The position numbers and the translations under genes are program-made. Of a stretch of DNA of 64,000 bases, positions 17,955 through 42,794 are shown one piece after another (position 1 is the stretch's first letter; every line of letters begins with the position of its first letter). The DNA is from Candidatus Gottesmanbacteria bacterium (GTDB taxonomy: Bacteria; Patescibacteriota; Microgenomatia; UBA10105; UBA927), in assembly GCA_016218255.1 (NCBI GenBank), contig JACREN010000044.1, forward strand, positions 2,489 to 66,488, written 5' to 3'. The notes beneath the pieces were generated by a model. That model worked only from the letters and a program-made list of their open reading frames with translations, did not search any database and was not told the DNA's origin.

Positions 17955-19006
17955 TTTTTTTGAATTTGTATTAGCTCATCTTGTATTTCAGAGAGCCCGG
18001 ATAATATCCGTACAACCTCTTCAACCTTTGCACGGGGAGTATTTTCAGATGTATATGCCTCCTTCATGGATTCAAGCTTTCGTTCACCGTCCAAAAAATA
18101 ACGGTTGTACTCTAGCCCCTGACTTTCCGGTGGGATATCAAAATAGCTACCACGGTCTACTACCCGAGCAAGTTCTTCACATGTCAAAAGCGTTTCATGG
18201 TATTTCTCTCCTGCCCGAATACCAACTTCGCGATACCCTTTTGCGTGTGAAAAAATTCTGCACACAGCTTCTACTAGCACACCCACAGTACACGCACGCG
18301 ACTTCCGCACATACAGATGTCCATTTTCTCCATTTACAAGCGCATACAATACCAAATCAACCGCTTCCGGCAATGGCAGAAGAAATCGAGTCATCGAAGG
18401 GTTGGTCACAGGCAGGGTGTTATTTTTTTTAACCTGCTCAATAAAAAATGGAAGCACCGACCCCCGCGAATAAAGGACATTCCCGTAGCGCACACCGCAA
18501 AAAACAGTATGCTTGTTTCCACTCTCCGAGAGCTTCCGCGCAGCAGCGACCATAACCTTTTCCATAATCGCCTTAGTCATCCCCATAGCATTTATGGGGT
18601 ACGCCGCCTTATCCGTACTCAAAATCACAACCCTGGATACGTCGGCAGCAATTGCGCTATCCAGCACATTCTGGGTGCCTAATACGTTTGTTTTAACGGC
18701 CTCAATTGGAAAAAATTCACATGACGGCACCTGCTTGAGCGCAGCCGCATGGAATACAAAATCCACTCCGTCCATGGCTTCTGAAACACTAGCTCCATCC
18801 CGCACATCGCCAATAATAAATCTTAAAAGCCGCGAATTATAATAGTTTCGCATGTCAAATTGCTTCTTTTCATCACGGCTGAAAATGACTATCCGTGCCG
18901 GCTCAAGTGACAATAGTTTTTCAATAACCGTATTGCCAAATGATCCCGTTCCCCCAGTTATTAAAATCGTTTTATTTTTTATATGCTCTCTGACGCTTTT
19001 TTTCAT
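17951..19006 (-). CDS. UDP-GlcNAc 4,6-dehydratase/epimerase of the CapD/FnlA/PseB family
   Basis: 351 aa with 'KTILITGGTGSFGNTVIEKLL' and 'IVIFSRDEKKQ', which are Polysacc_synt_2 short-form hallmarks. Confidence 0.8.
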   Translation of the reverse strand: MKKSVREHIKNKTILITGGTGSFGNTVIEKLLSLEPARIVIFSRDEKKQFDMRNYYNSRLLRFIIGDVRDGASVSEAMDGVDFVFHAAALKQVPSCEFFPIEAVKTNVLGTQNVLDSAIAADVSRVVILSTDKAAYPINAMGMTKAIMEKVMVAAARKLSESGNKHTVFCGVRYGNVLYSRGSVLPFFIEQVKKNNTLPVTNPSMTRFLLPLPEAVDLVLYALVNGENGHLYVRKSRACTVGVLVEAVCRIFSHAKGYREVGIRAGEKYHETLLTCEELARVVDRGSYFDIPPESQGLEYNRYFLDGERKLESMKEAYTSENTPRAKVEEVVRILSGLSEIQDELIQIQKK

Positions 19007-20175
19007 AATGATAAAGCACGGATGACATTAATTGTGTATAGAGTGTTGTAGTCAAAACGCCGAACGTACGATATCGCACATTTTCTATATGAGGTATGCA
19101 ATTTTTCGTCCGTCAGGAACCTTACTATAGCACGAACCAATGCTTCTTTTCTATAAGGAACGACGATCCCGCACCTATGAATTTGTATATCGCGGGCGCT
19201 GGCAATTGCATCTGTTACCACTACCGGTAACCCGCATACCATATAGTCCTTTATTTTCCCTGGATCTGCATTTTTTACTTTTTCATCCAGAATATACGTA
19301 TTAAATGGTGCAACACCTACCGCGCCTCGGCATAGTATTCGTTCAAGCTGTTTCCGGTCAGTTACCCAACCGTAAAAGCGGACATACTTTGTGAGATGCA
19401 ATATGGCAGTCAACTTCTGAAGTGCCTCCATCTGCTCGCCCCCCCCGACAATAACTAACGACGCATCTGGTACCTTCTTACGTATATCAGCAAATGCGCG
19501 AATAAGCATATCTACCCCCATATGCATCACAAGGTGACCGGAAAAAACAATGAGACGAGTGTTGATTTGTGACCGCGGCAGGCGCTTCACCTGATCAAAC
19601 CAAATGCCAATCGGAACCGTATGCTGACTACCCATCTCCCCCTTAGAGCGGTGAAATTTCCTCCTCGCAGCAACCATGGCTTCTGACACATTCCATGTTT
19701 CATCAGAATGTCGCACACAAAATAAATCAATTGCATGATACAGTCGATTCATGAATGGATTTGCGAATCGAGTCGGGAAATAATCAATCGTATAATATAC
19801 AACCCGCCGTACTATGCCCAATCGTTTCAAAAATAGCCCCAGAAGTGCGTTCATATTATCAACGCCGATAAACAAATCAAATCTCTTTCCCGCTTGAAGG
19901 ATACGGCCCAGAGCGAATAACGCTTCAAACCCTGAACTTAATACGACATTACGAAACCGCACTGGTGCACGAACACCAGAAACGATGTTATTACCGCGGC
20001 TGAGCTCTGCAAAGGATCGATCAAAATCATGAACATCTGCCATCGGCAATGGATGGCTTATATAAAGCAAATTCCGGCACCCATGAACGCGCAAAAAATC
20101 TCTCATCGCCTGTGAAGCAGAATACACTCTGGCATGGGTAGCCAAAATAATTGACGATTGTTTAATGATATTCAT
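19003..20175 (-). CDS. GT4 (GT-B fold) glycosyltransferase
   Basis: 390 aa. The C-terminal Glycos_transf_1-type region 'LVIVGGGEQMEALQKL...FYGWVTDRKQLERILCRGAVGVAPF' has the E-x7-E-like pattern. Confidence 0.7.
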   Translation of the reverse strand: MNIIKQSSIILATHARVYSASQAMRDFLRVHGCRNLLYISHPLPMADVHDFDRSFAELSRGNNIVSGVRAPVRFRNVVLSSGFEALFALGRILQAGKRFDLFIGVDNMNALLGLFLKRLGIVRRVVYYTIDYFPTRFANPFMNRLYHAIDLFCVRHSDETWNVSEAMVAARRKFHRSKGEMGSQHTVPIGIWFDQVKRLPRSQINTRLIVFSGHLVMHMGVDMLIRAFADIRKKVPDASLVIVGGGEQMEALQKLTAILHLTKYVRFYGWVTDRKQLERILCRGAVGVAPFNTYILDEKVKNADPGKIKDYMVCGLPVVVTDAIASARDIQIHRCGIVVPYRKEALVRAIVRFLTDEKLHTSYRKCAISYVRRFDYNTLYTINVIRALSL

Positions 20176-20987
20176 AGTCCCAATGTCCTACCCAATCCCT
20201 CATAAATCAATGTGGTCGGCTCCCACCCCAATATTTGACTCGCACGCGAAAAGGAACAAATTGGGAGTACTGATTCCTTATTCGGCGATGGCGCATACGA
20301 TACTGAAATTTCTTTTCCAACCAATTTACTCATTGTATGAATAAGCCCATTGATAGATACTCGTTCTCCTGAGCAAACATCGATTACTGGACAAATTTCC
20401 ACCCCTCTATACATAACCGACCGAAATATTGCTAAGGCAGCATCTTTCACATAGAGATAATCACGAATTTGCTTACCATCTCCATGAACCACGATCGGCT
20501 TTCCGGACTGGATTAGGTGAGCGAATGTCGAAATTGCTGAATTATAAAACGGACGGCCACCGGGGCCATAAAGATTCGAAAAACGCAATACTACTGCCCG
20601 CATTCCCCTTGATCTGCTTTCATATCCAATCACCTCTTCAGCGCATCGCTTGCTCCAACCGTAAAAACTATTCTTCCATGCTGCCTGCACGGATGAAGCA
20701 AATATTAGCGCTGCCTTCGGACAGTATAATCGCATCGCTTCCATAAGGCGGACGGTACCTAGCAGATTTACCTTCGCCAGCTTATAATTCGTATCACGGT
20801 TAGCTCCGGCGAGATGCACTACTGCAGACGCTCCTATCAATAATTCCGAAAGGGATTGAGGAATGAATAAGTCTTGCGTTTCTTTTTTTAGAAATGACGT
20901 GGTAACTGATTCTTGCTGAAAGAGTTGCATCACATGAGCACCAAGGAATCCTGTTGCCCCGGTGATAGCAATTTTTTTCGTTTTCAT
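20172..20987 (-). CDS. Short NAD(P)-dependent SDR, sugar-nucleotide reductase/epimerase-like
   Basis: 271 aa with 'KIAITGATGFLGAHV' and 'YGWSK' (YxxxK). Its position after a CapD-like dehydratase suggests a 4-reductase role. Confidence 0.65.
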   Translation of the reverse strand: MKTKKIAITGATGFLGAHVMQLFQQESVTTSFLKKETQDLFIPQSLSELLIGASAVVHLAGANRDTNYKLAKVNLLGTVRLMEAMRLYCPKAALIFASSVQAAWKNSFYGWSKRCAEEVIGYESRSRGMRAVVLRFSNLYGPGGRPFYNSAISTFAHLIQSGKPIVVHGDGKQIRDYLYVKDAALAIFRSVMYRGVEICPVIDVCSGERVSINGLIHTMSKLVGKEISVSYAPSPNKESVLPICSFSRASQILGWEPTTLIYEGLGRTLGL

Positions 20988-21864: not shown

Positions 21865-22449
21865 ATGAAAAAAATAATCCAATCTTCTTTAGTACTGTTT
21901 ATTTCGGTATGTACTGTTCTATTGATCCCGCTAAGCAAATCGTTTGCCCAAGAGGTTCTCTCCGTACAAAGCGAATCAACTCCTATATATGTAGAATATG
22001 AACTGGCCTTTCCAGGTATGTTGCCGGATCACCCTCTCTATAAAGCAAAAATAATGCGCGACCGAATCATGGCCTTTGTCACCTCCAACCCTCAAAAACT
22101 TGCTGACTTTTATCTTCTTCAGACAGATAAGGGCATCTTAGCAGCTGCTATGTTAGTCGACAAAAATAACTCCAAGCTCGCCGCAACAACAGCGCTCAAA
22201 GCCGAACACAACTTCACTTTGCTGACGCAGCAATTGTTCCGGTTCCCCAAGAAGCCGGAGACAGCCTTTTATCAAAAACTAAAAACTGCCGCTGCGAAGC
22301 ATCAGGAAGTACTCGCATCTCTTGAAAAAAGAACAACAGGTGAAGAAGCAAAAACCTTTGAAACAATTATCGAATTTTCAAAGAAAAACGTGCAGACAAT
22401 CACCGATTTTCAAACGAAAAAGACCTTCGAAGAATCGCTTCTGGAATAA
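21865..22449 (+). CDS. Small secreted protein with a 'Y-x-L-x-[FY]-P-G-x-[LM]-P-[DG]' motif, paralog of 47857..48372
   Basis: 194 aa. The N-terminus is a signal peptide, 'MKKIIQSSLVLFISVCTVLLIPLSKSFAQE'. 'YVEYELAFPGMLPDHPLYKAKIMRDR' aligns with 'YVLPYPGSMPGSKFYLLSRIADS' of the paralog. Confidence 0.6.
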   Translation: MKKIIQSSLVLFISVCTVLLIPLSKSFAQEVLSVQSESTPIYVEYELAFPGMLPDHPLYKAKIMRDRIMAFVTSNPQKLADFYLLQTDKGILAAAMLVDKNNSKLAATTALKAEHNFTLLTQQLFRFPKKPETAFYQKLKTAAAKHQEVLASLEKRTTGEEAKTFETIIEFSKKNVQTITDFQTKKTFEESLLE

Positions 22450-22464
22450 TGCTATAATACCACC

Positions 22465-23415
22465 ATGCAAAAAAGCAGTGTAAATCCGGAGCTGTCCGTT
22501 ATTATTCCTGTTTACAACGAAGAGCAATCACTTCCGATACTGCACAAAGAACTCATTTCGGCACTCGAAAAAATCGGGTACACTTTTGAAATCCTCTATG
22601 TAGATGATGGCTCTACGGATCGCTCCCAAAATATACTCAGACGATTAACAAATCCGCGAGTTCATCTCATTACATTTCGGGCCAACTTCGGCAAATCGGA
22701 AGCACTTGCTGTTGGTTTTAGAACTGTAAAAGGGCGATATATTATCACGATGGATGCGGATCTACAAGATGATCCAACACAAATCAAACTGCTACTCGAT
22801 AAACTCATTTGTGGATATGACCTAGTGAGTGGCTGGCGCGTAAAACGAGAAGATACAAAGACAAAAAAAATCTCAAGCTTTCTTTTTAATAGAGGGACAT
22901 CGCTCCTCTCGGGCGTGAACCTACATGATGCGAATTGCGGCCTGAAAATATTTACCAAAGAAGTAGCGGATCAGATATCGCTTTACGGTGAGCTCCATAG
23001 ATTCATTCCAATTCTGGCTGCCAAAAAGAAATTCCGTGTCGCTGAATTACCTATTCATCACCGCAAAAGAAAATTCGGTGTCTCCAAGTATGGCTGGGAA
23101 CGCGGTTGGCGTGGAATCATTGATTTATTTACCACTCTCTTTGTCACGGATTACGCTACAAAACCTGCACACTTCTTTGGAAAAATTGGACTTCTCCTTT
23201 TCATAATAGGATTTATCATGGACGGATATGTCACCGCTCTAAAAATATTCACCGGCACCACACAGGGAAGAATCCCTCTGTTTCTTGCTGGTATATTGTG
23301 TATGGTCCTCGGAGTACAACTGCTCTCAACAGGACTTATTGCGGAGATGATGACGTACTATTTCCTGCGCCGGAATCCAAAAACCACACCCGGGCACGGC
23401 GGACCTGAACAATAG
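22465..23415 (+). CDS. Family-2 glycosyltransferase, polyprenol-phosphate sugar synthase type (GtrB/ArnC-like) with C-terminal TM helices
   Basis: 316 aa with 'LSVIIPVYNEEQSL', 'VDDGSTDRS' and 'ITMDADLQDDP', plus two C-terminal hydrophobic helices. Confidence 0.8.
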   Translation: MQKSSVNPELSVIIPVYNEEQSLPILHKELISALEKIGYTFEILYVDDGSTDRSQNILRRLTNPRVHLITFRANFGKSEALAVGFRTVKGRYIITMDADLQDDPTQIKLLLDKLICGYDLVSGWRVKREDTKTKKISSFLFNRGTSLLSGVNLHDANCGLKIFTKEVADQISLYGELHRFIPILAAKKKFRVAELPIHHRKRKFGVSKYGWERGWRGIIDLFTTLFVTDYATKPAHFFGKIGLLLFIIGFIMDGYVTALKIFTGTTQGRIPLFLAGILCMVLGVQLLSTGLIAEMMTYYFLRRNPKTTPGHGGPEQ

Positions 23416-25387
23416 GGCACACATTGTCAATTTCTGAAAATAATCCAATCATTGACGCCTTATCTGCTGGAAACGAATAAGAAAGCGATGTATTCCCCAG
23501 AGTGTATGACCTGTCCCCATCACCCATTTGAGTAATAAGAAAATACGGACTGAACCATTTATCTCCGTTTGATGAAACGCCAATTTTTATATTTTCCGGA
23601 GGTATACACCCGTCATTATCGAAAATTAACTCCAATTTTGTAATCTTTACTTCCCGAAGCAGACGAATAATGAGATCTTTCCCTTCTAACGCAAATGCTA
23701 CTTCTTCCATTTGTTGATTACGATACTCTGATTTTATGTTGGCTGGATCATTTTTCCATATCGTCAGAACCGTAGTGCCGTCAACACGTACCTCATAAAC
23801 CGGTTTAAGAAAACGTTCCAAAAATGCCGGCTCGAAGTATCGAAGCGCTTCAAAATCCATAGAGGTAGCCTCCATGATATATTCACCGCGGTGCGCGTAT
23901 CCGCTCCATACACTATCATCAAATATGATATCCGAACGCAAAAATGGACGGGGCAACGCGGACGTTCCCCGATGAACAAGAGTCAGGCGGGCTCCCTGTT
24001 CTGCATACTGATTTAGCCACTGTGCGCCTTGACGATACACGCTACCGAGATCTTCACCGGCAGAAGGGATTCGCAATGCATAAGCCCCACGCAATCCTCC
24101 GATAAGTTCATTTACATAAAGCGTCTCATTGGGATGAATTCGGATAAGCTTCGCGCCAGCAATGACAAATCCTGCAAAAATGAGTATTAAAATCATCACA
24201 CGCCACATACCGGTCAATCTCCAAACTATAAAGCGAGCGCCATACCCCGCTAATAAGCAGAACGCTGGAATATATTCCATGAGAAGTCTTGCACCGCCGT
24301 ATATAGATGTTCCTGGCATGCTTGCGCGCACTATAGGAATCGTCATCCAAAGGATGAGAAGCGTACCGAGCGGAGACGTTCGTCTTATGGTGTATGCGAA
24401 CGCAGCAATAAACCCAATTCCCCCCAATGCAAGAATCACGAGCGGTGTTGTCAACCCGATCCACGCGAGAGGATAGCTATTAAAACCAAAAAATAAATAT
24501 GCCGGCTGATACGGTTGGTATGTTCCAATTGATACGTAATATCCCAATATTTTTTTGAGATGTTCAATTGGCGCCGTCCAAAGAAACGGCCAGGACAAAA
24601 AAAACAGGGAAACTGCAATGACGCCTGCAAATGGAAATAATACAATAATCTTAGTAAGATTTCTTTTTCTTTCGGGTCGTTGAATCAACCAATAATACAA
24701 AAACCACAACCCTGCAATAATCGGCAGAAACGCGCTATTTAATTTCGTAGCCAGCGCAAACCCCCAGGCGATGCCGGAAAAAACAAGAAGCTTCCGGGAG
24801 TTTTTCGTCACCGCACGGTAAAAAAGAAGTACCGCAATGCTGAAAAACACCGTGAGCGGCGGATCCTTCACGTTAAAATGCGTCTCTGCCAAAAAAATAG
24901 GGTAGAGAAAAAGAGACAAGCCGCTCACGATGCCAGCGAGTATTCCGATTTCCTGTATCGCGAACCACACAAGAATTCCAATAAATAAAGAGGACAGAAA
25001 AATTCCAAAAACACTGTACGCTTCAATATCTCCGAGAACGCCAAACACTTCATAAAAAATGGTATTGGCCGCGGCAAACAATATGCCATTGAGCGGCGGA
25101 TGTCCACTATCGTTGAAACGCCAATACTGGGCGGTCATGTTGGGCAACTGATACATTGACCTTCGAGGCAACTGCGGACTATTTCCGATTAGCGGCGATA
25201 AAAAATACGTCAGGTAAGCCTTTCCCCGAACATAATGTGCGGGATCGTCCCAACTGATCCCATAATGAGAAAGCGTCGATAAACCAACAGCAAAGAACAC
25301 GAAACTAAAAATTACTGCGATGAATATATCAAATCGTTTTTTCACGTCTGTTATTGTATTATATACGTATGAAACGGCTGATTCCAA
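23336..25387 (-). CDS. GT-C-type glycosyltransferase, PMT/ArnT-like, paralog of 33352..35397
   Basis: 683 aa. It has an N-terminal TM helix, then 'GISWDDPAHYVRGKAY' and 'NDSGHPPLNGILFAAA', matching the DE-loop plus 'HPPL' architecture of GT39/GT83. The ORF track start is a TTG; a GTG at 25345 is possible. Confidence 0.55.
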   Translation of the reverse strand: MESAVSYVYNTITDVKKRFDIFIAVIFSFVFFAVGLSTLSHYGISWDDPAHYVRGKAYLTYFLSPLIGNSPQLPRRSMYQLPNMTAQYWRFNDSGHPPLNGILFAAANTIFYEVFGVLGDIEAYSVFGIFLSSLFIGILVWFAIQEIGILAGIVSGLSLFLYPIFLAETHFNVKDPPLTVFFSIAVLLFYRAVTKNSRKLLVFSGIAWGFALATKLNSAFLPIIAGLWFLYYWLIQRPERKRNLTKIIVLFPFAGVIAVSLFFLSWPFLWTAPIEHLKKILGYYVSIGTYQPYQPAYLFFGFNSYPLAWIGLTTPLVILALGGIGFIAAFAYTIRRTSPLGTLLILWMTIPIVRASMPGTSIYGGARLLMEYIPAFCLLAGYGARFIVWRLTGMWRVMILILIFAGFVIAGAKLIRIHPNETLYVNELIGGLRGAYALRIPSAGEDLGSVYRQGAQWLNQYAEQGARLTLVHRGTSALPRPFLRSDIIFDDSVWSGYAHRGEYIMEATSMDFEALRYFEPAFLERFLKPVYEVRVDGTTVLTIWKNDPANIKSEYRNQQMEEVAFALEGKDLIIRLLREVKITKLELIFDNDGCIPPENIKIGVSSNGDKWFSPYFLITQMGDGDRSYTLGNTSLSYSFPADKASMIGLFSEIDNVCPIVQVRRARVWFLDSGAGNSTSSSPQ

Positions 25388-27123
25388 TGATTATTTCAAC
25401 CATTTGTACCCTCTTCTTGCTTGAGGCAACACTCCGTATTTTTTGGGTTCCAGCCAACCTTGATCCCCGCTTTAGAAGACACGATATCCAATGGATGGAG
25501 CAAAACGTCGTATACAATTCATACGGATATCGTGATGTCGAATATACCCAAGGAAAGCCGGCCAATATCTTTCGCATCTATAGCCTGGGCGACTCGTACA
25601 CCTTTGGCTGGTATCTGCCGGATACGAAAAATACCTACACGAAGCTTCTTGAACATGATCTGAACGAAAATCAACACATTGCCAGCCAAATCATAAACGC
25701 TGCTTCCCCAGGGTTTTCCATGAAAGAAGAAGTGGATCGCTTTATGGAAGAAGGACGGTACTTTAACCCGGATCTGGTAACGATTGGCCTAAACTATGGA
25801 GACTTTATCACCGTGGGCCAGTTCCCAAACATCATGCTGCCATTCCAAAATGAACTGAACAAATCGTATCTCTATCGGACATCAGTCGGCAGACTCATTC
25901 AAATCATCGAATCTAAACGCCGCCGCGAGTATCTTCTGAATATTTTCCAAAATCCCGACTCTCCGGACTGGAAAGAGGCAGAGAAACTCTTAGTACATCT
26001 TCAAAAAGAAACGGCAGCGATCAATGCAAAGCTCGTTATCGTCCTGTTTCCGCATCTTGATACGGGAAATCCCGACGGACCATATTTATATATACCCATG
26101 CACGAAAAACTTACCGCATTTGCCAAAGAGCACGATATCACACTCGTCGACCCGTTGCCCTTGTATAAAAAATATAAAGACAAGGAGAAACTTGTCCTCA
26201 ATCCCATCGACGCCCATCCGACTAACGAAGCGCATGTATTGGTGTTTCAGGCATTTTTGAGATCGTTTTCATTTTCTTCGTATATTGCGAGCCATCAACC
26301 GTACCAACCACGAAAATTTTCAGTTTCCGTCCGATCCGAACGAGATAGGCTGCCGGCATTCAAAAAAATATGGCATATTAAATCTTCTGATCCAGGTATC
26401 CCGTGGGTGTACATGAATGATGACCAATCAGTTAAAACCATACCCCTTATAGATGCTGCGGCGCGCCAATCACCCATTTATCAGGATACGCTGCAAATTT
26501 TTAAACCGTCTCAGCCCGGCCAGCCTGGCAATACCATCGGCGCGTCGATGAAATATCATATTCTGGCAAAAAATCAATCCCAAGGGCAAATCATAATTCC
26601 CACGATTCTTTACGGATATCCTGTGGTCGGCATAGAAAATATCCAGGGATTATATATAGAAAAACAAGGGGGTACGGTAAAAGAATTTATCACGCCAATG
26701 AATATAAATTTCACCCCACAACAGATCACAATTTTTTATAAACCTGCTGCGGATTACTATGTCTTCCAGCTGGAGCTTGCCGTTGCCGTCAAACAGCTCA
26801 CCGTCACGGCAGATGGCCGAATTGCATACATAACCAAAACATCCATCATCACATACCCAATGAAAAAATCCGATACCCGTATTTCCATCCCGATAGGTGC
26901 TCCAATTGTCGGACTCCCGCAATTTACGGATATGAATGACAGTTACTCGTACGTCATTGATAATGGGGTCTTAACGCGCCTCCAGGAAATACACGTTACG
27001 GACAATCAACTCGATCTGCAGTTTGTCCACCCGATACGCGCGAACGCCGAGATTTCCATTCCCGTGGAACTAGGATATACTATAGACAATAATGAAGTTC
27101 TGACGCTTGACCTTGAACAATGA
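25354..27123 (+). CDS. Membrane-anchored SGNH/GDSL-family hydrolase or acyl-esterase, with a C-terminal beta-rich domain of about 300 aa and unknown function
   Basis: 589 aa. SGNH blocks are 'YSLGDSYTFGW' (I), 'NAASPGFS' (II), 'GLNYGDF' (III) and 'IDAHPTNEAH' (V). It has an N-terminal TM helix. The ORF track start is a TTG; the first ATG is at 25369. Confidence 0.65.
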   Translation: MYYIRMKRLIPMIISTICTLFLLEATLRIFWVPANLDPRFRRHDIQWMEQNVVYNSYGYRDVEYTQGKPANIFRIYSLGDSYTFGWYLPDTKNTYTKLLEHDLNENQHIASQIINAASPGFSMKEEVDRFMEEGRYFNPDLVTIGLNYGDFITVGQFPNIMLPFQNELNKSYLYRTSVGRLIQIIESKRRREYLLNIFQNPDSPDWKEAEKLLVHLQKETAAINAKLVIVLFPHLDTGNPDGPYLYIPMHEKLTAFAKEHDITLVDPLPLYKKYKDKEKLVLNPIDAHPTNEAHVLVFQAFLRSFSFSSYIASHQPYQPRKFSVSVRSERDRLPAFKKIWHIKSSDPGIPWVYMNDDQSVKTIPLIDAAARQSPIYQDTLQIFKPSQPGQPGNTIGASMKYHILAKNQSQGQIIIPTILYGYPVVGIENIQGLYIEKQGGTVKEFITPMNINFTPQQITIFYKPAADYYVFQLELAVAVKQLTVTADGRIAYITKTSIITYPMKKSDTRISIPIGAPIVGLPQFTDMNDSYSYVIDNGVLTRLQEIHVTDNQLDLQFVHPIRANAEISIPVELGYTIDNNEVLTLDLEQ

Positions 27124-27290
27124 AGTGCTTTTTCGGCAAAATAAAAATTATTGGGGAGATATTTGAATTTCTTGGGCATGAACGGCTGTGGTGGCTCGCC
27201 CCGCCGATTATCATATTGCTCTTGTTTGGTCTTCTGTTTGTCCTGTCTCACGGTACGGTGCTTGCCCCATTTTTGTATCCACTATTCTGA
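27120..27290 (+). CDS. Tiny single-TM membrane protein (56 aa) of a family often found next to carbamoyltransferases
   Basis: The ATG at 27120 overlaps the stop of the SGNH gene (ATGA). The product is 'MKCFFGKIKIIGEIFEFLGHERLWWLAPPIIILLLFGLLFVLSHGTVLAPFLYPLF'. It is not called as such in the ORF track. Confidence 0.5.
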   Translation: MKCFFGKIKIIGEIFEFLGHERLWWLAPPIIILLLFGLLFVLSHGTVLAPFLYPLF

Positions 27291-27484
27291 TGAAGAAAAT
27301 TCTTGTTTTGATATCAGATATCCAAATGACGATTATTATGACGATATTTTACCTCGTCATACTTGCTCCCTTTTCACTATTTGTAAAAAGTAAAATTAAG
27401 CCTTTTAAGACAAAAAAAAAGAACAGCAATTGGGAGCGCATACATATTACTTCAAATAATAAAGATCTGATGAAACAATACTAA
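27290..27484 (+). CDS. Tiny single-TM membrane protein (64 aa)
   Basis: Its ATG shares one nucleotide with the preceding stop (TGATG). The product is 'MKKILVLISDIQMTIIMTIFYLVILAPFSLFVKSKIKPFKTKKKNSNWERIHITSNNKDLMKQY'. It ends 7 nt before the carbamoyltransferase start. Confidence 0.4.
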   Translation: MKKILVLISDIQMTIIMTIFYLVILAPFSLFVKSKIKPFKTKKKNSNWERIHITSNNKDLMKQY

Positions 27485-27491
27485 TGCACCC

Positions 27492-29273
27492 ATGAATATC
27501 CTTGGCATTTCCTGTGATTATCATGATAGTGCTGCAGTTCTCGTTCGCGATGGAATTCTGGTCTCCGCAGCCCAGGAAGAACGGTTCACCCGATTAAAAA
27601 ATGATTCCTCCATCCCGCGCCATGCCGTTGATTTCTGCCTTTCACAGGGTAACATCGGGCTGAAAGATATTGATCGGGTTGCTTTTTATGAAAAGCCGTT
27701 CCGAAAATTTCACAGAATTCTGCTCTCATCGTTAGCCACATATCCGGCTGGTCTGCCGTTTTTTGTCGCAGCTATGCGTTCGTTTCTTTTGGAGAAATTG
27801 TGGATCAAAAATAAAATCATTGAAGAACTACATATACCGGAAGACCGTGTCTCATTCGTCCCCCATCACATTTCCCATGGGGCATCAACATTTTTTGCAT
27901 CACCATACTGCGACGCAACCATCGTAACGATTGACGGTGTCGGAGAATGGGCGACCTCAACCATTGGAAAAGGAAAAGATAACAATATCACGGTAATGGC
28001 TGAACAGCAGTTTCCCCATTCTCTTGGGCTTCTTTACAGCACAATCACCGCGTTTTTGGGATTCGAGGTTAATGAGGGGGAATACAAAGTCATGGGCATG
28101 GCACCGTTTGGAAAACCAATATATGCTGACAAAATTTGGAAACTTCTCAACCTGTTTCCAGATAGCAGCTTTCGGTTAAACCTAGAATATTTTTCCTTTC
28201 AGATATCAGAAAGCAGTCCATATAGTTCAAAGCTTATTTCTCTGTTGGGCAAGCCCAGGGATCCCGGCAGTCACTTTTTCACCAAACGCTCCGGTTTTCC
28301 TTCATATTTTGGCAAAAAACCAGCCGACTACGCGAAGCGTTGTGAAGAAAATCAACACTTTGCCGACATTGCCGCATCGCTGCAATACGTAGCGGAGCAT
28401 ATCATATTTTCTGTTATTCGCCACGCCTACACGATAGCGCCATCAAAAAATCTGTGTCTCGCCGGGGGAGTTTTCTTAAACAGTGTCGCAAACGGCAAAC
28501 TTCAAAAAAATACTCCTTTCCAACATATCTATATCCAGCCGGCGGCAGGTGACGCAGGCGGCGCATTAGGCGCTGCGCTTTATGTAAACAGAACCGTATA
28601 TCAATCCAAGCCTTTTATCATGACTCACGCGTATTGGGGCAAAGAATTCTCGGAAACAGAAATATTGCACGCAGCAAAATCATATAATCTCTCCTTTCGA
28701 AAAATACGCAATACGCGCAAACTCAACACAGTCATCATCAATGCGATAATGAATGAAAAAGTCGTCGGCTGGTTTAACGGGCGAAGCGAATGGGGTCCGA
28801 GGGCTTTGGGCAATCGAAGTATTCTGGCAGATCCCAGAGATCCCGCCATAAAGGATATTGTCAATACAAAAATAAAGTTCCGTGAGCCATTCCGTCCGTT
28901 CGCTGCTTCTGTTCTCGCCGGACATGAACATGAAATATTCGATATACCTGCTTCTCCGGGTTTACCCATCAATTTTATGCTCTGCGTGTATCCGGTCAAT
29001 AAGAAATGGCGTAAAAAAATTCCTGCAGTCACGCACGTCAACGGAACCAGCAGACCCCAGGTCGTCAACAAAAAAGATAATAAACGCTACTGGGAGCTTA
29101 TCAACGATTTTTATAAAAAAACCGGTGTGCCATTGCTATTGAATACATCGTTTAACATCAAAGGCGAACCGATCGTGAACACCCCGACTGATGCCATACA
29201 AACATTCCTCACAAGTGAACTCGATCTGTTAGTCATGGGAAATTTCATTATAACAAAACAATCAAATAGCTGA
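27492..29273 (+). CDS. O-carbamoyltransferase of the NodU/CmcH/TobZ family
   Basis: 593 aa. 'ILGISCDYHDSAAVLVRDGILVSAAQEERFTRLKNDSSIPRHAVDFCL' is the hallmark N-terminus of the family. A YrdC-like C-terminal region is present. Confidence 0.85.
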   Translation: MNILGISCDYHDSAAVLVRDGILVSAAQEERFTRLKNDSSIPRHAVDFCLSQGNIGLKDIDRVAFYEKPFRKFHRILLSSLATYPAGLPFFVAAMRSFLLEKLWIKNKIIEELHIPEDRVSFVPHHISHGASTFFASPYCDATIVTIDGVGEWATSTIGKGKDNNITVMAEQQFPHSLGLLYSTITAFLGFEVNEGEYKVMGMAPFGKPIYADKIWKLLNLFPDSSFRLNLEYFSFQISESSPYSSKLISLLGKPRDPGSHFFTKRSGFPSYFGKKPADYAKRCEENQHFADIAASLQYVAEHIIFSVIRHAYTIAPSKNLCLAGGVFLNSVANGKLQKNTPFQHIYIQPAAGDAGGALGAALYVNRTVYQSKPFIMTHAYWGKEFSETEILHAAKSYNLSFRKIRNTRKLNTVIINAIMNEKVVGWFNGRSEWGPRALGNRSILADPRDPAIKDIVNTKIKFREPFRPFAASVLAGHEHEIFDIPASPGLPINFMLCVYPVNKKWRKKIPAVTHVNGTSRPQVVNKKDNKRYWELINDFYKKTGVPLLLNTSFNIKGEPIVNTPTDAIQTFLTSELDLLVMGNFIITKQSNS

Positions 29274-29648
29274 GGCAAATGTATCAGGTTTGGCCTGATC
29301 AAGGGGCTCATTCACAAACGCGAGAAGAAACATTTCTCCCTGGCCGATATTTTCCAGCTTATGCGCGACACCAGCAGGCACAGCGACCATGGTCGGTTTA
29401 TCTCCACTGACCACAACCTCCTCACGCTCATGCGTTTTCAAATCTTCAAATGAAATTTTTGCTTTCCCTTTAATAATGAGAAACCATTCTTGTTTTTTAG
29501 TATGAAAGTGCTGACCGCGTACAACCCCTTTCTTCGAATATGACACAAAGAAATGCTTCATCGCGCGGGATAAAAACGGATATTCGTTCTGTACGAGCCA
29601 GCCGCGTTCATCACGCCGAACTTTCAGAGGATACGTATCTATTTTCAT
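29262..29648 (-). CDS. Cupin sugar-nucleotide 3,4-ketoisomerase-like protein (FdtA/WxcM-C-like)
   Basis: 128 aa with 'ERGWLVQNE' and 'VRGQHFHTKKQEWFLIIKGKAKI', containing the His pair typical of FdtA-type isomerases. Confidence 0.65.
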   Translation of the reverse strand: MKIDTYPLKVRRDERGWLVQNEYPFLSRAMKHFFVSYSKKGVVRGQHFHTKKQEWFLIIKGKAKISFEDLKTHEREEVVVSGDKPTMVAVPAGVAHKLENIGQGEMFLLAFVNEPLDQAKPDTFASAI

Positions 29649-30640
29649 ATCCAGCCCGTTTTTTTCAAAAGTCTAATAATAGCATTCCGATCCATAAAAT
29701 TACCCGCTAAGTCCGTACGATATTCATTATATTTTTTCCGCAATCCGGAAACTCTTTCTCCATACGGGTAAATAACGAAATAATCATTCCTTTCGACTGC
29801 GCGATGCATTTCCTCTTCTGAAACTAAGGCTTCATACAACTGTTCCCCTTCTCGGGAACCAATCCTTTTCATAGGATATTCTTCTCTACCAGTCAAAGCT
29901 TTGCTCATGACAGCGGCTATATCTGTGATTCGAGCAACCGGCATCTTTTTTACAAAAATTTCTCTTCCTTTTCCTTCTGTGGTCGCTGTAAATACTAAAT
30001 CCATAGCGTCTTCTAAGCTGATCAGGAATCGGGTCATATCAGATTCTGTAATGGTCAAAGGTTCTTTTTTATCAATCTGATCTTTAAAAAGCGGCACCAC
30101 GCTACCCCGGCTTCCCACAACATTGCCGAAACGGACACACGTAAATAATGTTTTATCGGTTTTATGAGCAAACAGCAGAATTCTTTCCTGAATGGCTTTT
30201 GTCATTCCCATGACATTTACTGAACGGACTGCTTTATCAGTGCTAATTGCTATGACCTTTTGCACGCCGTTTTGGATAGCGGCTTCCCGCAAGTTAAAGG
30301 CGCCATGAACATTTGTATATACCGCTTCCATAGGATTTTCTTCACAAATCGGCACATGCTTCATCGCAGCGGCATGATAGATAATATCCACTCCGCGGCA
30401 CGCAGCCAGCAATGTAGAAAAATTTCGTACATCACCGATGGAAAATGTAAGGCGATCGGCAAACGCTGACAGATCGCGACGCAATATGTGCTGTTTCCAT
30501 TCATCCCGGGAAAACACAATGATCTTCCGTGGGGAGAATTTCAAAAGATGCCGTACTAAATATTCTCCAAAGCTCCCCGTCCCTCCCGTGACGAGCACTG
30601 TTTTATCATTAAAAAACTCTGCCATCGCTAACGTGTTCAT
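29645..30640 (-). CDS. UDP-GlcNAc 4,6-dehydratase (PseB/PglF/CapD short-form family)
   Basis: 331 aa with 'KTVLVTGGTGSFGEYLVRHLL' and 'IIVFSRDEWKQ'. It is a paralog of 17951..19006. Confidence 0.8.
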   Translation of the reverse strand: MNTLAMAEFFNDKTVLVTGGTGSFGEYLVRHLLKFSPRKIIVFSRDEWKQHILRRDLSAFADRLTFSIGDVRNFSTLLAACRGVDIIYHAAAMKHVPICEENPMEAVYTNVHGAFNLREAAIQNGVQKVIAISTDKAVRSVNVMGMTKAIQERILLFAHKTDKTLFTCVRFGNVVGSRGSVVPLFKDQIDKKEPLTITESDMTRFLISLEDAMDLVFTATTEGKGREIFVKKMPVARITDIAAVMSKALTGREEYPMKRIGSREGEQLYEALVSEEEMHRAVERNDYFVIYPYGERVSGLRKKYNEYRTDLAGNFMDRNAIIRLLKKTGWI

Positions 30641-31725
30641 AGTGCTTTCTCAATAAATTCCGCAATAAAGTGAATCTGTTTTTTTGTAATCTTCGGATGA
30701 ACCGGCAGCGAAAGCGCTTCCCGGCTTAATTGCTCTGCAATCGGAAAGTTGCCGCGAAACCCGCGTACAAGCAGTTCCTTTTGCTGATGAATGGGTACGG
30801 GATAATAGATCCCATATCCTATGCCTGCACCGTCAAATGCGTGAATGAGCGTCTGTCTATTTTTTTCTTTTTGCTCTCTTACGCGTATCGTATATTGATG
30901 ATACACGTGCTGCACGCATCCCGCAACGACGGGCGTAACAAGCTGAGGCATATCACTCAATAGCTCATTATAGTACGCAGCATGCTCTCTTCGAATCTTA
31001 TTAAACCGATCAAGTTTGGCAAGTTGTACCAGACCCAATGCGGCCTGCATTTCCGTCATTCGCATATTATAACCTAAAAAATCATGATAATATCGAACTC
31101 GACCACCGTGGCTTCTAGCCATCTTCGCATAATCATTAATATCCTTATCGTCCGTCACAATCATGCCTCCCTCACCGGTTGTCATATTTTTGGTCGCGTA
31201 AAATGAAAAACAACCAATATCCCCAATAGATCCTGCCTTTTTGCTTTTGTATATGGCTCCATGGGCTTGGCAAGCATCTTCTATGATCTTCAGATCGTGA
31301 CGTCTGGCGACGTCCCGGATTATGTCCATATCACAAACATTTCCAAATAAATGAACCGGCAAAATTGCCTTTGTTCGTTTGGTAATTTTTTCTTCTATCT
31401 TTCCTGCGTCAATATGAAAGTCTTTACCAATATCGACAAACACCGGCGTTGCACCCACATACAAAATCGCGTTGGTCGAAGCGATAAAACTATAGGGGGT
31501 CGTTATCACCTCATCACCCGGACCGATGCCAAGAGCAAGAAGAGCAATATGAAGAGCTACCGTGCCATTTGCCACCGCAACCGCATACCCCGAACCCATA
31601 TAGGAAGCAAATTGCTTTTCAAAAGCCGCCACCGTTTCCCCTTGTGCCAATTGTCCGGAGCGCAGGACCTTGACCACCGCCTGCTCTTCCTCATGGGTAA
31701 AAGAAACATGAGTAATAGGAATCAT
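30637..31725 (-). CDS. DegT/DnrJ/EryC1-family sugar aminotransferase (PglE/PseC-like)
   Basis: 362 aa with 'AVANGTVALHIALLALG' and the catalytic Lys in 'FSFYATKNMTTGEGG'. Confidence 0.85.
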   Translation of the reverse strand: MIPITHVSFTHEEEQAVVKVLRSGQLAQGETVAAFEKQFASYMGSGYAVAVANGTVALHIALLALGIGPGDEVITTPYSFIASTNAILYVGATPVFVDIGKDFHIDAGKIEEKITKRTKAILPVHLFGNVCDMDIIRDVARRHDLKIIEDACQAHGAIYKSKKAGSIGDIGCFSFYATKNMTTGEGGMIVTDDKDINDYAKMARSHGGRVRYYHDFLGYNMRMTEMQAALGLVQLAKLDRFNKIRREHAAYYNELLSDMPQLVTPVVAGCVQHVYHQYTIRVREQKEKNRQTLIHAFDGAGIGYGIYYPVPIHQQKELLVRGFRGNFPIAEQLSREALSLPVHPKITKKQIHFIAEFIEKAL

Positions 31726-32282
31726 ATAGATATTTCAGCTTTACACACAGGGCACATCTGCCCTACCCCCTTTTTCACGAGCTTTGCTCCACAAAGACAG
31801 ACATATCCATGCGCGCGGGCAGGATTTCCATATACCAGGCTATGTCGAGCAACATCTCTTGTCACTACTGACCCAGCGCCTATCATCGCCCATTCTCCGA
31901 TAGTTACCCCTGGAACGATAACGCTACCCGCTCCCACAGATGCACCTCGCTTCACCACCGTCTTGGTTACTACCCAATCCTTGACTCCCTTTGGTTTCTC
32001 TTTTGGTGTCACGGCACGGGGCACTTTATCATTCGCAAAACATACGTGAGGACCCACAAACACTCCGTCTTCTATAGTAACACCCACATAAATCGACACG
32101 TAATTACCTATCTTACAATTATTGCCAACTATAACATCATGATCAATATACACGCCTTTTGCGATAATGCAACTGTTGCCCAATCTCGCATGCTCGCGTA
32201 TTTGTGCGTGATGCCAAATTTTAGTTCTTTCTCCAATATGGGCATTTTTGCTTACCTCCGCAGTTGGGTGAATATATATCAT
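31722..32282 (-). CDS. Left-handed beta-helix (hexapeptide-repeat) N-acetyltransferase (PglD/WbpD-like) with a C-terminal Cys4 tail
   Basis: 186 aa with imperfect hexapeptide repeats, for example 'IGERTKI', 'IREHARLGNSCII' and 'VIVGNNCKIGNYVSI'. The C-terminus reads 'VCLCGAKLVKKGVGQMCPVCKAEISI'. Confidence 0.8.
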   Translation of the reverse strand: MIYIHPTAEVSKNAHIGERTKIWHHAQIREHARLGNSCIIAKGVYIDHDVIVGNNCKIGNYVSIYVGVTIEDGVFVGPHVCFANDKVPRAVTPKEKPKGVKDWVVTKTVVKRGASVGAGSVIVPGVTIGEWAMIGAGSVVTRDVARHSLVYGNPARAHGYVCLCGAKLVKKGVGQMCPVCKAEISI

Positions 32283-33355
32283 AACGTATTATAAAAAAAA
32301 TCGACAACAACGTCACTTGGCCGACTCGTAACTTGCTTGTGACGGCGTAGTCTCCTGTACGAATTCAAAAACCAAACAACTCTCCTCATTTCCAACTTCG
32401 ACAAGTAAGCAGTCTCCCCAATGCCAATATCCTGTTCAATAACTTCTCTTAAAATAAGCATTGGAGTATTGAGAACAAACGTTTCTGTCTGCAACCCACC
32501 GCTGTCAGAAGCTACAAACTGACTGTGTCTGACTGCATGCATAAAATCAACATAATCAAAAAGATAACTGGTAACGAGCGGAAACTTACGTTTTAGCTCC
32601 AATATAGTCTGCCAAACTCCCTGCTTTTTAAGCTCAAAAACAGTATTGGTATGGATCGGCCATATGACGATAAACCCTCGGCGCAAAATTTCCTCCAATA
32701 TTCGGATAATGCGATGCAACCTTTCTTTGTTGAATAAATTTTCTTTTCTATGAAACGTAATGAGTACATATTTTTTTCCAAAAAATTGCTTTATCTTATT
32801 TGACGGTGGTCTTTGCAAAGCCAGTCTCGCCGAATCCAACGCCGTATTTCCGTTGGTAATGAAAATACTCTGCTTTCTCTTGATTGTGTCTGCGTCTCTC
32901 TGATATGGACAAAAACTAATATCGCTATACCTGGATACGACCGTTCGGGTAATCTCCTCAGGAAATGGTTCAAAAAAATTCCAACTGCGAATTCCGGACT
33001 CCAGATGCACGATGCGCGCACCAAACCATTTTGCAATGAGAAAACCCAAAATAGTTGACTCTGCGTCTCCATGGATAAGAACGTAATCATGTTTGGTTAT
33101 AGGAAGCTTACGCGCATTCCACAGCACATGAGGCGCCCAACACAACAGTTCCCAGATATTTGCAAGGTCCCTTTTTTTCATCGTCAGGTAGATATCCGGC
33201 TTGCGAATTCCCAATCTTTTTCTGGTATTTTCTATGATATGATAATGTTGACATATATGTATAAACTGATAGGGTACCCGACGCTTATCAAGCCCCTGCA
33301 TAACAGGAAACGTCTTCATGAATTGTCCCTTTGTGCCGATGAGTATATATATCAT
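32279..33355 (-). CDS. UDP-N-acetylglucosamine 2-epimerase family protein, second copy; a hydrolysing NeuC/LegG-like role is possible
   Basis: 358 aa with 'IVHLESGIRSWNFFEPFPEEITR' and 'FVASDSGGLQTE', which are epimerase_2 motifs. Confidence 0.65.
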   Translation of the reverse strand: MIYILIGTKGQFMKTFPVMQGLDKRRVPYQFIHICQHYHIIENTRKRLGIRKPDIYLTMKKRDLANIWELLCWAPHVLWNARKLPITKHDYVLIHGDAESTILGFLIAKWFGARIVHLESGIRSWNFFEPFPEEITRTVVSRYSDISFCPYQRDADTIKRKQSIFITNGNTALDSARLALQRPPSNKIKQFFGKKYVLITFHRKENLFNKERLHRIIRILEEILRRGFIVIWPIHTNTVFELKKQGVWQTILELKRKFPLVTSYLFDYVDFMHAVRHSQFVASDSGGLQTETFVLNTPMLILREVIEQDIGIGETAYLSKLEMRRVVWFLNSYRRLRRHKQVTSRPSDVVVDFFYNTL

Positions 33356-42790: not shown

Positions 42791-42794
42791 ACTT

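Follow-up and report, generated by a model that had tools for sequence, protein, structure and literature searches.

In the 64,000-nucleotide stretch of Candidatus Gottesmanbacteria DNA analysed here (the window), four consecutive plus-strand genes carry, judged by their sequences, all the parts of a conserved, four-component module and match sxtL, sxtK, sxtJ and sxtI of the saxitoxin clusters gene for gene. They are a genuine copy of a widespread, putative carbamoylation module. The operon lies within a large sugar-chain biosynthesis island and probably carbamoylates a surface glycan.

The four ORFs encode, in order, an SGNH hydrolase, a DUF5989 protein, a 64-residue protein and a carbamoyltransferase (CT), and direct reading of their junctions bore out the coupling described in the first-pass annotation. 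The stop codon of the hydrolase gene (TGA, 27121–27123) is overlapped by the DUF5989 start codon at 27120 (ATGA), and the DUF5989 stop codon (TGA, 27288–27290) by the next ATG at 27290 (TGATG). The TAA of the 64-residue ORF (27482–27484) is followed by 7 nt (tgcaccc) and the CT start codon at 27492. The operon had been placed at 25354–29273; its genes and strand stand, but its start has been corrected. Position 25354 is an upstream in-frame TTG that begins the longest hydrolase ORF. We assign the start to the ATG at 25369 (584 residues, MKRL...), because the resulting protein matches an NCBI protein with 100% identity and coverage and the start is shared by 11 of 11 other full-length homologues.

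The CT (27492–29273, plus strand, 593 residues) is a class III O-carbamoyltransferase of the TobZ/NodU type, combining a Kae1-like N-domain with a YrdC-like C-domain, in agreement with its initial assignment. It matches Pfam Carbam_trans_N (240 bits) and Carbam_trans_C (230 bits), and aligns over its full length with the PDB sequences of NovN (9e-87), GdmN (2e-80) and TobZ (6e-72). Residues H11 (HDSAA), H125 and H129 (HHISH), D148 (DGVGEW) and D354 (AAGDAGG) correspond to the base H27 and the iron ligands H133, H137, D156 and D333 of GdmN (PMC9633730). Further motifs are found at residues 430–443 (GRSEWGPRALGNRS) and 462–471 (KFREPFRPFA), and by alignment the CT retains every class III catalytic motif intact. 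In class III enzymes, the YrdC-like domain converts carbamoyl phosphate and ATP to carbamoyl-AMP, and the iron-containing Kae1-like domain moves the carbamoyl onto a hydroxyl of the substrate (PMC9633730). TobZ, GdmN and NovN, which are structurally solved, soluble antibiotic-tailoring enzymes, share with the window CT the two-domain architecture, the base His and the His/His/Asp/Asp metal ligands, while the C-terminal dimerization domain of GdmN is absent from the window CT. We know of no reported partners of the SxtJ or SxtK type for these three enzymes. NodU and NolO, from the same enzyme family, also modify a glycan at a sugar hydroxyl, in their case on a lipo-chitooligosaccharide. The NCBIfam NodU profile scores 149 bits (1.9e-43) against the window CT, far under its equivalog cut-off of 1000, which therefore rules out a NodU orthologue.

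The two small proteins noted at first reading as membrane proteins each have one predicted transmembrane (TM) helix. The DUF5989 protein (27120–27290, plus strand, 56 residues) is SxtK-like and matches Pfam PF19451 with 59.9 bits (cut-off 27, E 2.4e-16). It comprises an N-terminal amphipathic segment predicted to be cytoplasmic, the TM helix, preceded by Lys and Arg residues, and an uncharged C-terminal PFLYPLF tail. The 64-residue protein (27290–27484, plus strand) by itself matched no Pfam or NCBIfam profile, and every one of the clusters in its family, at least 2,368, is labelled hypothetical. We refer to it as mini-SxtJ, an assignment based on the family alignment, hhalign comparison to SxtJ and synteny with the CT. 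A weak Pfam SxtJ match at profile positions 51–99 is seen in 23 of 34 family members, and longer variants with two TM helices widen this match to positions 33–99 (up to 23.7 bits). Comparison by hhalign paired the family with bona fide SxtJ (94% probability, E 1.3e-7) and with a 143-residue protein from Sinorhizobium meliloti (92.9%, E 3.6e-7). The TM helix of mini-SxtJ (residues 14–32) leads into a basic tail that ends in KQY and carries 10 Lys/Arg vs 2 Asp/Glu. Tyr21 and Pro27, both within the helix, are invariant among the 34 members and align with a Tyr and a Pro of full-length SxtJ; the terminal Gln is invariant too. One CPR variant of 52 residues begins directly with the TM helix. These profile alignments identify the family as the C-terminal half of SxtJ, a one-helix truncation that keeps the tail.

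We compared 80 CT loci from the group with 50–54% identity to the window CT, spanning Acidobacteriota, Methylomirabilota, Omnitrophota, Binatia, Patescibacteria, Chloroflexota and others. The first-pass annotation would have been refuted by tiny ORFs lacking conserved homologues beside CTs, which is not what these loci show: homologues of mini-SxtJ are present in 73/80 loci and of DUF5989 in 69/80, the latter on the CT strand in every case, and the two occur together in 65/80. The small ORFs are not chance, because both recur on the CT strand beside CT genes in most of these loci and in many phyla. Between the mini-SxtJ stop codon and the CT start, the median distance is 2 nt (4 nt or less in 51 of 67 cases). 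An SGNH gene is found within 3 kb in 45 loci, 38 of which have all three partners; since the other 35 have none within that distance, the SGNH protein is an accessory component. The same operon occurs on another CPR-like contig. More distant CTs (42–43% identity), encoded on Aquisphaera giovannonii pOJF2_1 and S. meliloti pSymB, also have an adjacent DUF5989 gene. In the former, within an exosortase/EPS locus, the CT is accompanied by proteins that PGAP names 'SxtJ family membrane protein' and 'DUF5989 family protein'; in the latter, the set comprises a divergent SGNH gene, the 143-residue protein, DUF5989 and the CT. Both carry a full-length SxtJ with three TM helices (138–143 residues), whereas the window CT subfamily has the one-helix mini form (the 73 loci above). 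Azospirillum has a CT, an SGNH protein and a 65-residue protein, and here, as on pSymB, the SGNH gene adjoins the CT gene.

In saxitoxin clusters, sxtJ (405 nt) and sxtK (165 nt) adjoin sxtI (PMC2679770; PMC2885083), and sxtI, sxtJ, sxtK and sxtL form one uninterrupted, co-inherited block with a shared origin, in which sxtI encodes the CT and sxtL a GDSL lipase (PMC2679770). The saxitoxin parallel drawn in the first-pass annotation was correct and extends to all four genes, including sxtL. The sxtJ, K and L genes are also grouped in a suomilide cluster. Reviews up to 2025 go no further than describing SxtI as acting 'with SxtJ and SxtK'. Both gene sets encode a class III CT, an SxtJ-type membrane protein, a protein of DUF5989 size (~54 residues in sxt) and a GDSL/SGNH hydrolase, a link drawn through the Pfam profiles for SxtJ and DUF5989 and through the PGAP-named SxtJ family proteins. 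They differ in gene order (L-K-J-I here, I-J-K-L in sxt), in the length of J (the C-terminal half of 64 residues vs 134), in the extra 280-residue β-domain of the SGNH protein here, and in setting, a CPR glycan island rather than a toxin cluster.

The SGNH protein (25369–27123, plus strand), an SxtL-like partner, matches Pfam Lipase_GDSL_2 over residues 78–294 (34.2 bits, cut-off 32.9). The AF2 model (pLDDT 89.3) has an N-terminal TM helix at residues 4–25 (25378–25443) and a rare, all-β C-terminal domain of 280 residues (305–584; 26281–27120), in line with the earlier description of a membrane-anchored SGNH enzyme with a large extra domain. Among 12 full-length homologues, Ser76 (GDS), Asp281 and His283 never vary, and Ser76 and His283 are likewise invariant in nine cassette-linked SGNH proteins. 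The latter form a coherent subfamily with a common anchor and a motif preceding the domain (D39, N..G.R), and most keep the TM helix and the LE..LR motif at its end, which sits at the membrane interface. Flanking charges in family members favour an N-in anchor with the catalytic domain outside. Foldseek matched the model to the SGNH esterases Axe2, CEX and TesA (1e-8 to 1e-6); the nearest solved structures, Axe2 and the acetyl-mannan esterase CEX, are acetyl-esterases that act on carbohydrates.

The glycan setting proposed earlier is supported by neighbouring genes in the window and by polysaccharide clusters elsewhere. Glycosyltransferase, GT-C and nucleotide-sugar genes dominate those parts of the window that were scanned. 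Divergent from the operon lies a PMT_2 (GT-C) membrane glycosyltransferase (23336–25387, minus strand, 42.9 bits), which probably uses a polyprenyl-phosphate sugar donor and whose context suggests a link to the carbamoylation module; PMT or PMT_2 genes also stand beside long-form SGNH genes in L081, L082 and L083. Next to it is a GT2 enzyme (22465–23415, plus strand, Glycos_transf_2, 108.7 bits) resembling polyprenyl-phosphate sugar synthases, with NCBIfam matches to ArnC-type (1.6e-49), PgfS (3.1e-37) and AglJ (2.5e-26) profiles, all under the equivalog cut-offs. The surroundings of the module elsewhere are also polysaccharide genes (Wzy_C, Bac_transf, exosortase).

We propose, with a probability of roughly 0.5, that the two small proteins dock the CT at the membrane, that the CT carbamoylates a lipid-linked glycan, and that the external SGNH enzyme edits the exported product. 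The N-terminal helix of the DUF5989 protein and the basic C-terminal tail of mini-SxtJ would face the cytoplasm, an orientation favoured by the charges flanking both helices and by the 52-residue variant, and would jointly hold the soluble CT on the inner membrane face. There, the CT would O-carbamoylate a sugar or glycan intermediate anchored in the membrane through polyprenyl phosphate. The GT2 and nucleotide-sugar enzymes encoded nearby would make this intermediate, and GT-C (PMT_2) transferases would use it; the acceptor may instead be a nucleotide sugar or non-glycan lipid. The anchored SGNH domain, outside the cell with its β-sandwich domain, would work on the same glycan after export; its likeliest role is that of an esterase, either trimming the carbamoyl or another ester group or shifting it to a new position. 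Its substrate may be a carbamate or an acetyl ester, and it may act as hydrolase or transferase. An esterase role would agree with the decarbamoylase role proposed for SxtL, although to our knowledge SGNH enzymes are not established carbamate hydrolases and the SxtL role is itself a proposal. The layout would be analogous to the O-acetylation systems OatA, PatA/PatB and AlgI/AlgJ/AlgX, in which a donor activated in the cytoplasm, a membrane component and an SGNH-fold enzyme on the far side of the membrane serve a surface glycan. In those systems, a large, multi-pass MBOAT or AT3 protein stands in place of two single-pass peptides, and the donor is acetyl-CoA, where the operon would use carbamoyl-AMP. 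Counting against it, tethering does not readily account for the retention of SxtJ and SxtK in the soluble-toxin pathway of saxitoxin.

The first-pass annotation had read the operon as a cassette for carbamoylation and a separate acyl modification, in which the SGNH enzyme would independently add or remove another acyl group such as O-acetyl, with two unrelated modifications sharing one operon. The acetyl-esterase folds of its nearest solved relatives fit such a role, as do the long-form SGNH gene of L083, flanked by two PMT_2 genes without a CT, and MBOAT-like genes in 6/80 CT loci. However, the hydrolase accompanies the CT module in 45/80 loci, far above a casual neighbour, as well as in Proteobacteria and in the sxt and suomilide clusters, and the cassette-linked proteins form their own subfamily. 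We saw no MBOAT or AT3 partner among the 48 window ORFs scanned, so external acyl addition would have no donor route. Given this and its recurrence with the CT and the small proteins, the SGNH enzyme is more likely to target the same carbamoyl or ester group than to add a second decoration, and we regard two unrelated modifications as unlikely.

Still less probable is a relay, by analogy with these O-acetylation systems, in which the CT activates the carbamoyl in the cytoplasm, the small proteins carry it across the membrane, perhaps via the invariant intramembrane Tyr of (mini-)SxtJ, and the external SGNH Ser places it on the exported glycan. The parts would suit it: a cytoplasmic donor enzyme, small membrane proteins with Tyr21 and Pro27 conserved as in full-length SxtJ, and an anchored external enzyme with intact Ser/His and the interfacial LE..LR motif; the S. 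meliloti cassette SGNH also has a faint AlgX-like match (E 9e-4). Yet a relay would need the SGNH protein, which is missing within 3 kb in 35 of the 80 loci, whereas the SxtJ and SxtK types are nearly constant, and two single-pass proteins of 50–75 residues are a minimal scaffold for group translocation. Moreover, class III CTs pass the carbamoyl group of carbamoyl-AMP straight to the final acceptor hydroxyl in a closed Kae1 pocket (PMC9633730), and the saxitoxin acceptor is presumed intracellular.

Equally doubtful is a role in tailoring some small secreted or secondary metabolite, like saxitoxin or suomilide, and not a cell-surface glycan. The literature describes the J, K and L proteins only from natural-product clusters, and L087 has NRPS genes 3 kb downstream. 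Against this stand the sugar-related genes of the scanned window parts, in which no PKS, NRPS or other hallmarks of such clusters were found, and the Wzy, Bac_transf, exosortase or PMT_2 surroundings of the CPR-like loci L081–L083 and of L085 and L089.

That the small proteins are CT substrates (carbamoylated peptides), or regulators or chaperones of CT stability, rather than subunits is very improbable: the tight coupling suits any fixed-stoichiometry model and the CT superfamily includes peptide and protein carbamoylation (HypF on HypE; PMC9633730), but one J/K pair accompanies CTs with clearly different acceptors (the saxitoxin precursor vs glycan loci), no exposed loop has a conserved nucleophile, and conservation falls on the TM helices and short tails, with the intramembrane Tyr and Pro and the terminal Gln as the invariant residues.

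All four plus-strand open reading frames described at this locus in the first-pass annotation are present, encoding an SGNH hydrolase, a 56-residue protein, a 64-residue protein and a carbamoyltransferase (CT). For the SGNH gene, the database protein and full-length homologues indicate ATG 25369 as the start codon rather than the upstream TTG (25354) given in that annotation, for a product of 584 residues. Translational coupling is as had been noted. Read directly from the sequence, the SGNH stop codon overlaps the ATG at 27120 (ATGA), the stop codon of the 56-residue gene overlaps the ATG at 27290 (TGATG), and a 7-nt spacer lies between the TAA of the 64-residue gene (27482–27484) and the CT start codon at 27492. 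Promoter-like sites were modestly more frequent than in shuffled sequence (18 versus 11.4 ± 3.9) and terminators were at shuffle level, with no promoter or terminator site from these scans positioned to delimit the operon. Upstream, a GT2 gene (22465–23415, plus strand) is convergent with a PMT_2 gene (23336–25387, minus strand), their 3′ ends overlapping by 80 nt. The start region of the PMT_2 gene abuts or overlaps the SGNH start at 25369, which leaves at most about 20 nt for a pair of divergent promoters.

The CT (27492–29273, plus strand) was assigned from Pfam, PDB sequence matches and motifs; exact look-up of the protein returned no identical database entry. Its two-domain architecture scored above the Pfam cut-offs (Carbam_trans_N, 240.4 bits against 24; Carbam_trans_C, 230.4 bits against 27), and it matched the solved enzymes NovN (9e-87), GdmN (2e-80) and TobZ (6e-72), the last over its full length. 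The Kae1-like domain contains the base histidine H11, within the motif HDSAA, and the iron ligands H125/H129, D148 and D354, and the YrdC-domain motifs are also present. These residues correspond to H27, H133/H137, D156 and D333 of GdmN (PMC9633730), where HDSAA was aligned directly with NovN and the remaining CT–GdmN correspondences were drawn by motif position. Judged by these motifs, the protein is an intact class III O-carbamoyltransferase of the NodU/CmcH/TobZ family. Class III enzymes use carbamoyl phosphate and ATP to form carbamoyl-AMP, from which the hydroxyl is carbamoylated (PMC9633730), and the motif set fits this two-step mechanism. At 149 bits against the NodU cut-off of 1000, orthology of the CT to NodU can be rejected.

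We scanned one genome per species for CT relatives, found 577, and analyzed the loci of the best 80, which are 50–54% identical and span many phyla, including Acidobacteriota, Methylomirabilota/Rokubacteria, Omnitrophota, Binatia, Chloroflexota and Patescibacteria. Six-frame searches with the window proteins placed all three partner types next to CT genes on the same strand, and HMMs built from these matches were used to count partners. The 64-residue family was found in 73 of the 80 loci and DUF5989, the family of the 56-residue protein, in 69, always on the CT strand; 65 loci have both. An SGNH gene lies within 3 kb in 45 loci (38 on the same strand), and all three partners occur together in 38. 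The gene of the 64-residue family is nearly always immediately upstream of the CT, with a median stop-to-start gap of 2 nt (≤4 nt in 51 of 67 gaps), and DUF5989 takes one of two positions, upstream of that gene in 40 loci and directly downstream of the CT in 30. Thus, homologues of both tiny proteins adjoin other CTs, clearly bearing out the association proposed from the sequence, and this conservation and synteny rule out chance ORFs. A rough count of CT neighbours by all-against-all BLAST clustering of six-frame ORFs, which was swamped by spurious high-GC frames and did not link short proteins, gave GT2, epimerase, GT4, radical SAM and MBOAT.

The 56-residue protein is a clear member of DUF5989 (PF19451; 59.9 bits against a cut-off of 27, E-value 2.4e-16, profile positions 2–49 of 49). 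The 64-residue ORF alone has no Pfam or NCBIfam match. A single-sequence search with it returned only itself, as an identical hypothetical protein at NCBI of Candidatus Gottesmanbacteria, the CPR/Patescibacteria lineage from which the window derives, and a family alignment from the related loci was therefore needed. The alignment of 34 members has the consensus W..WK..A..IGNFQARVLLT.FY.V..LPFGL.VR.FSDPL.IK......W.........AR.Q., in which Tyr21, Pro27 and Gln63 (window protein numbering) are invariant. Searching with this profile retrieved at least 2,368 clusters at 90% identity; among the 120 matches listed there was no Pfam domain and nearly all were unnamed or called 'hypothetical protein'. 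An NCBIfam scan of the family gave nothing consistent. The short form thus makes up a large family that has no Pfam or NCBIfam model.

We compared this family to SxtJ (PF19588). The window protein itself gave no match at the gathering cut-off of 24.4 bits, and at 64 residues with one transmembrane (TM) helix it does not have the full-length SxtJ architecture of ~135–145 residues and about three TM helices. Scanned singly, 23 of the 34 family members match PF19588 below threshold, and in all eight members with coordinates checked the match covers profile positions ~51–99 of 99. In variants of 103–112 residues, which have one extra N-terminal TM helix, it extends colinearly to positions 33–99. 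The best score in the family, these variants included, is 23.7 bits, against 35.9 bits for a bona fide 138-residue SxtJ from Aquisphaera giovannonii pOJF2_1. Profile alignment with hhalign matched the family to residues ~62–137 of this SxtJ (94.1% probability, E-value 1.3e-7, 73 columns) and to a 143-residue protein of Sinorhizobium meliloti (92.9%, 3.6e-7), with the FY...P.GL, DPL and terminal Q-F/Y features aligned in these comparisons. By profile comparison, then, the 64-residue protein is homologous to the C-terminal half of SxtJ, although it fails formal Pfam membership, and we name it mini-SxtJ. What SxtJ conserves is small: a single TM helix, in which a Tyr and a Pro are invariant, followed by a basic tail ending in Gln-Phe/Tyr, encoded by a gene in translational coupling with that of the CT. 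This narrows the search for its function.

Annotated plasmids carry comparable gene sets. Aquisphaera giovannonii pOJF2_1 encodes a CT, an 'SxtJ family membrane protein' of 138 residues and a 'DUF5989 family protein'. S. meliloti pSymB (locus L090, 2631–6833; KEM44_09010–09025) encodes an SGNH protein, the 143-residue SxtJ-like protein, a 49-residue DUF5989 protein and a CT. The 143-residue protein has no Pfam SxtJ match, though it aligned with the mini-SxtJ profile. Genetically tractable organisms carry the cassette, S. meliloti among them.

The charge patterns of the three partners suggest how they sit in the membrane. In mini-SxtJ, 13 residues precede the TM helix at 14–32, and the tail beyond it has 10 Lys/Arg against 2 Asp/Glu; this K/R-rich tail would be cytoplasmic under the positive-inside rule. 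A 52-residue variant from a CPR-like locus (L082) opens directly with the TM helix, so that the minimal unit appears to be the helix and tail. The N-terminus of DUF5989 is charged and amphipathic, with Lys/Arg immediately preceding the TM helix, and its PF(I/L)Y..LF end is uncharged, a pattern that suggests an N-in, C-out orientation. In most members of the SGNH family the flank of the membrane anchor is positive on the N-terminal side and neutral or negative on the C-terminal side, which would place the catalytic domain outside the cell.

The SGNH protein is barely above the Lipase_GDSL_2 cut-off (34.2 bits against 32.9). Its AF2 model (pLDDT 89.3) consists of a TM helix at residues 4–25, an SGNH domain that can be superposed on SGNH esterases of carbohydrates and lipids (Foldseek, probability 1.00) and an all-β C-terminal region. 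The catalytic residues Ser76 (block I, GDS), Asp281 and His283 (block V) are invariant in 12 full-length homologues, and Ser76 and His283 in nine SGNH proteins linked to the CT module. Block V of the CPR cassette proteins reads D-x-H and not the canonical D-x-x-H (IDAHP, residues 280–284, window 26206–26220); a Dehalococcoidia homologue (locus L080) appears to retain D-x-x-H.

These components have counterparts in saxitoxin biosynthesis. In sxt clusters, sxtI (carbamoylation), sxtJ (405 nt), sxtK (165 nt) and sxtL (1281 nt) are consecutive, and sxtL encodes a GDSL lipase with a proposed role in decarbamoylation (PMC2679770). All four genes fall in the same phylogenetic origin class (PMC2684587), and a suomilide biosynthetic gene cluster likewise groups sxtJ, K and L (PMC10157211). 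The saxitoxin parallel that had been drawn for the small proteins holds, and it extends to the SGNH gene, whose counterpart is sxtL. The operon has the same four-component set as the sxt block, in the order L-K-J-I. DUF5989 is presumably the SxtK family, given the size of sxtK and the position of DUF5989 beside genes annotated as SxtJ family, and recurrent adjacency to the CT and the two small proteins makes the SGNH protein a candidate SxtL-like partner. SxtJ and SxtK were described as uncharacterised (PMC2885083), and a 2025 review states that SxtI acts together with them and says nothing further (PMC12300590). In the literature examined, from 2009 to that review, neither has an established function, and we found no functional study of the module in the literature on DUF5989 and carbamoylated polysaccharides. 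The module itself is known; new in the window are the truncated SxtJ, the extended SGNH protein and the CPR glycan setting.

The operon belongs to a glycan island of very large extent, whose genes lie mostly on the minus strand. Among the products of the island are FnlA/CapE-like and PseB-like dehydratases, two DegT aminotransferases, a hexapeptide acyltransferase, a methyltransferase and two Epimerase_2 proteins, and at least five of its genes are of the PMT_2 (GT-C) type, with several more of the GT2 and GT4 types. The divergent neighbour directly beside the operon is the PMT_2 gene, which an ArnC/PgfS/AglJ-like GT2 adjoins. In the CPR-like locus L082 the operon is identical (SGNH, 589 residues; DUF5989, 56; the 52-residue protein; CT, 590). 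Of the other two homologue contexts examined, one has the SGNH gene next to a PMT gene, and a CT and a gene for a 60-residue protein are close by; in L083 it lies between two PMT_2 genes without a CT. Outside CPR, the module occurs with Bac_transf, Wzy_C, WecG and sulfotransferases (L085, Aquilonibacter), with Bac_transf and GT4 (L087) and with exosortase, EpsI and a tyrosine autokinase (L089, Aquisphaera giovannonii pOJF2_1). The module is mainly an accessory of envelope polysaccharides, present across many bacterial phyla, including CPR/Patescibacteria, and is not specific to saxitoxin clusters. We suggest that a glycan module of this kind was the source from which the sxtIJKL block was recruited.

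Two conserved membrane partners are thus coupled translationally to a CT, next to an intact membrane-anchored SGNH protein and in a polysaccharide context. The observation made from the sequence was confirmed, and the interpretation drawn from it is partly supported. We propose that DUF5989 and mini-SxtJ would dock the CT on the cytoplasmic face of the membrane, where it would carbamoylate a lipid-linked glycan intermediate, and that the external SGNH protein may later trim or reposition the carbamoyl group. We give this account as a whole a probability of about 0.5. If it is right, the genome is predicted to carry O-carbamoylated surface glycans. We know of no report of such glycans in CPR bacteria.

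The SGNH protein could instead act as an independent acyl esterase or transferase, as the first-pass annotation had it. Its domain does superpose on carbohydrate and lipid esterases, but no MBOAT or AT3 membrane acyl translocase of the OatA/PatB/AlgX type was found in a Pfam scan of 48 ORFs, which took in the window apart from about 16 ORFs at its ends; this speaks against independent acyl addition, and we regard this role as doubtful. Tailoring of a small molecule has precedents in the saxitoxin and suomilide clusters; it is improbable for a module that is found mainly with envelope polysaccharides. A trans-membrane relay is also conceivable, in which the carbamoyl group, activated in the cytoplasm, would cross by way of the small TM proteins, where an intramembrane Tyr is invariant, reach the serine of the external SGNH protein and end up on the already exported glycan. 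It would be a carbamoyl counterpart of OatA/Pat O-acetylation with a far smaller membrane component. However, the SGNH gene is present in 45 of the 80 loci against 69–73 for the small proteins and is therefore accessory, which fits the editing role in our proposal better than an obligatory relay, and we consider the relay quite improbable. That the conserved small proteins adjoining the CT are its substrates or regulators is highly improbable.

Several further features of these loci were observed. Two separate nucleotide-sugar pathways lie at 16833–20987 and 29262–33355 of the window. One, with an FnlA/CapE-like dehydratase, a reductase and a 2-epimerase, resembles L-FucNAc synthesis; the other, with a PseB-like dehydratase, a cupin, a DegT aminotransferase, a hexapeptide acyltransferase and an Epimerase_2 protein, resembles a diacetamido-trideoxyhexose route. 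The Aquilonibacter polysaccharide locus (L085, 12031–14876) has a second, different CT with a HypF_C_2 match and two sulfotransferases beside its SGNH/DUF5989/mini-SxtJ/CT genes, suggesting multiple glycan decorations. DUF5667 proteins occur twice in the island (21865–22449, plus strand; 47857–48372, minus strand), each beside a GT2 gene, and a DUF5667-then-GT2 pair likewise precedes the homologous operon in L082 (1484–2068). GC skew is negative throughout the 64 kb, strong and uniform (−0.06 to −0.20), with nearly all genes on the minus strand; the few plus-strand genes include the carbamoylation operon, the DUF5667/GT2 pair and two ORFs at 59290–63230. Large minus-strand ORFs of 372–544 residues at 41213–47860 and 50719–52353 have no Pfam match at 1e-5 and may be unrecognised membrane glycosyltransferases or polymerases.
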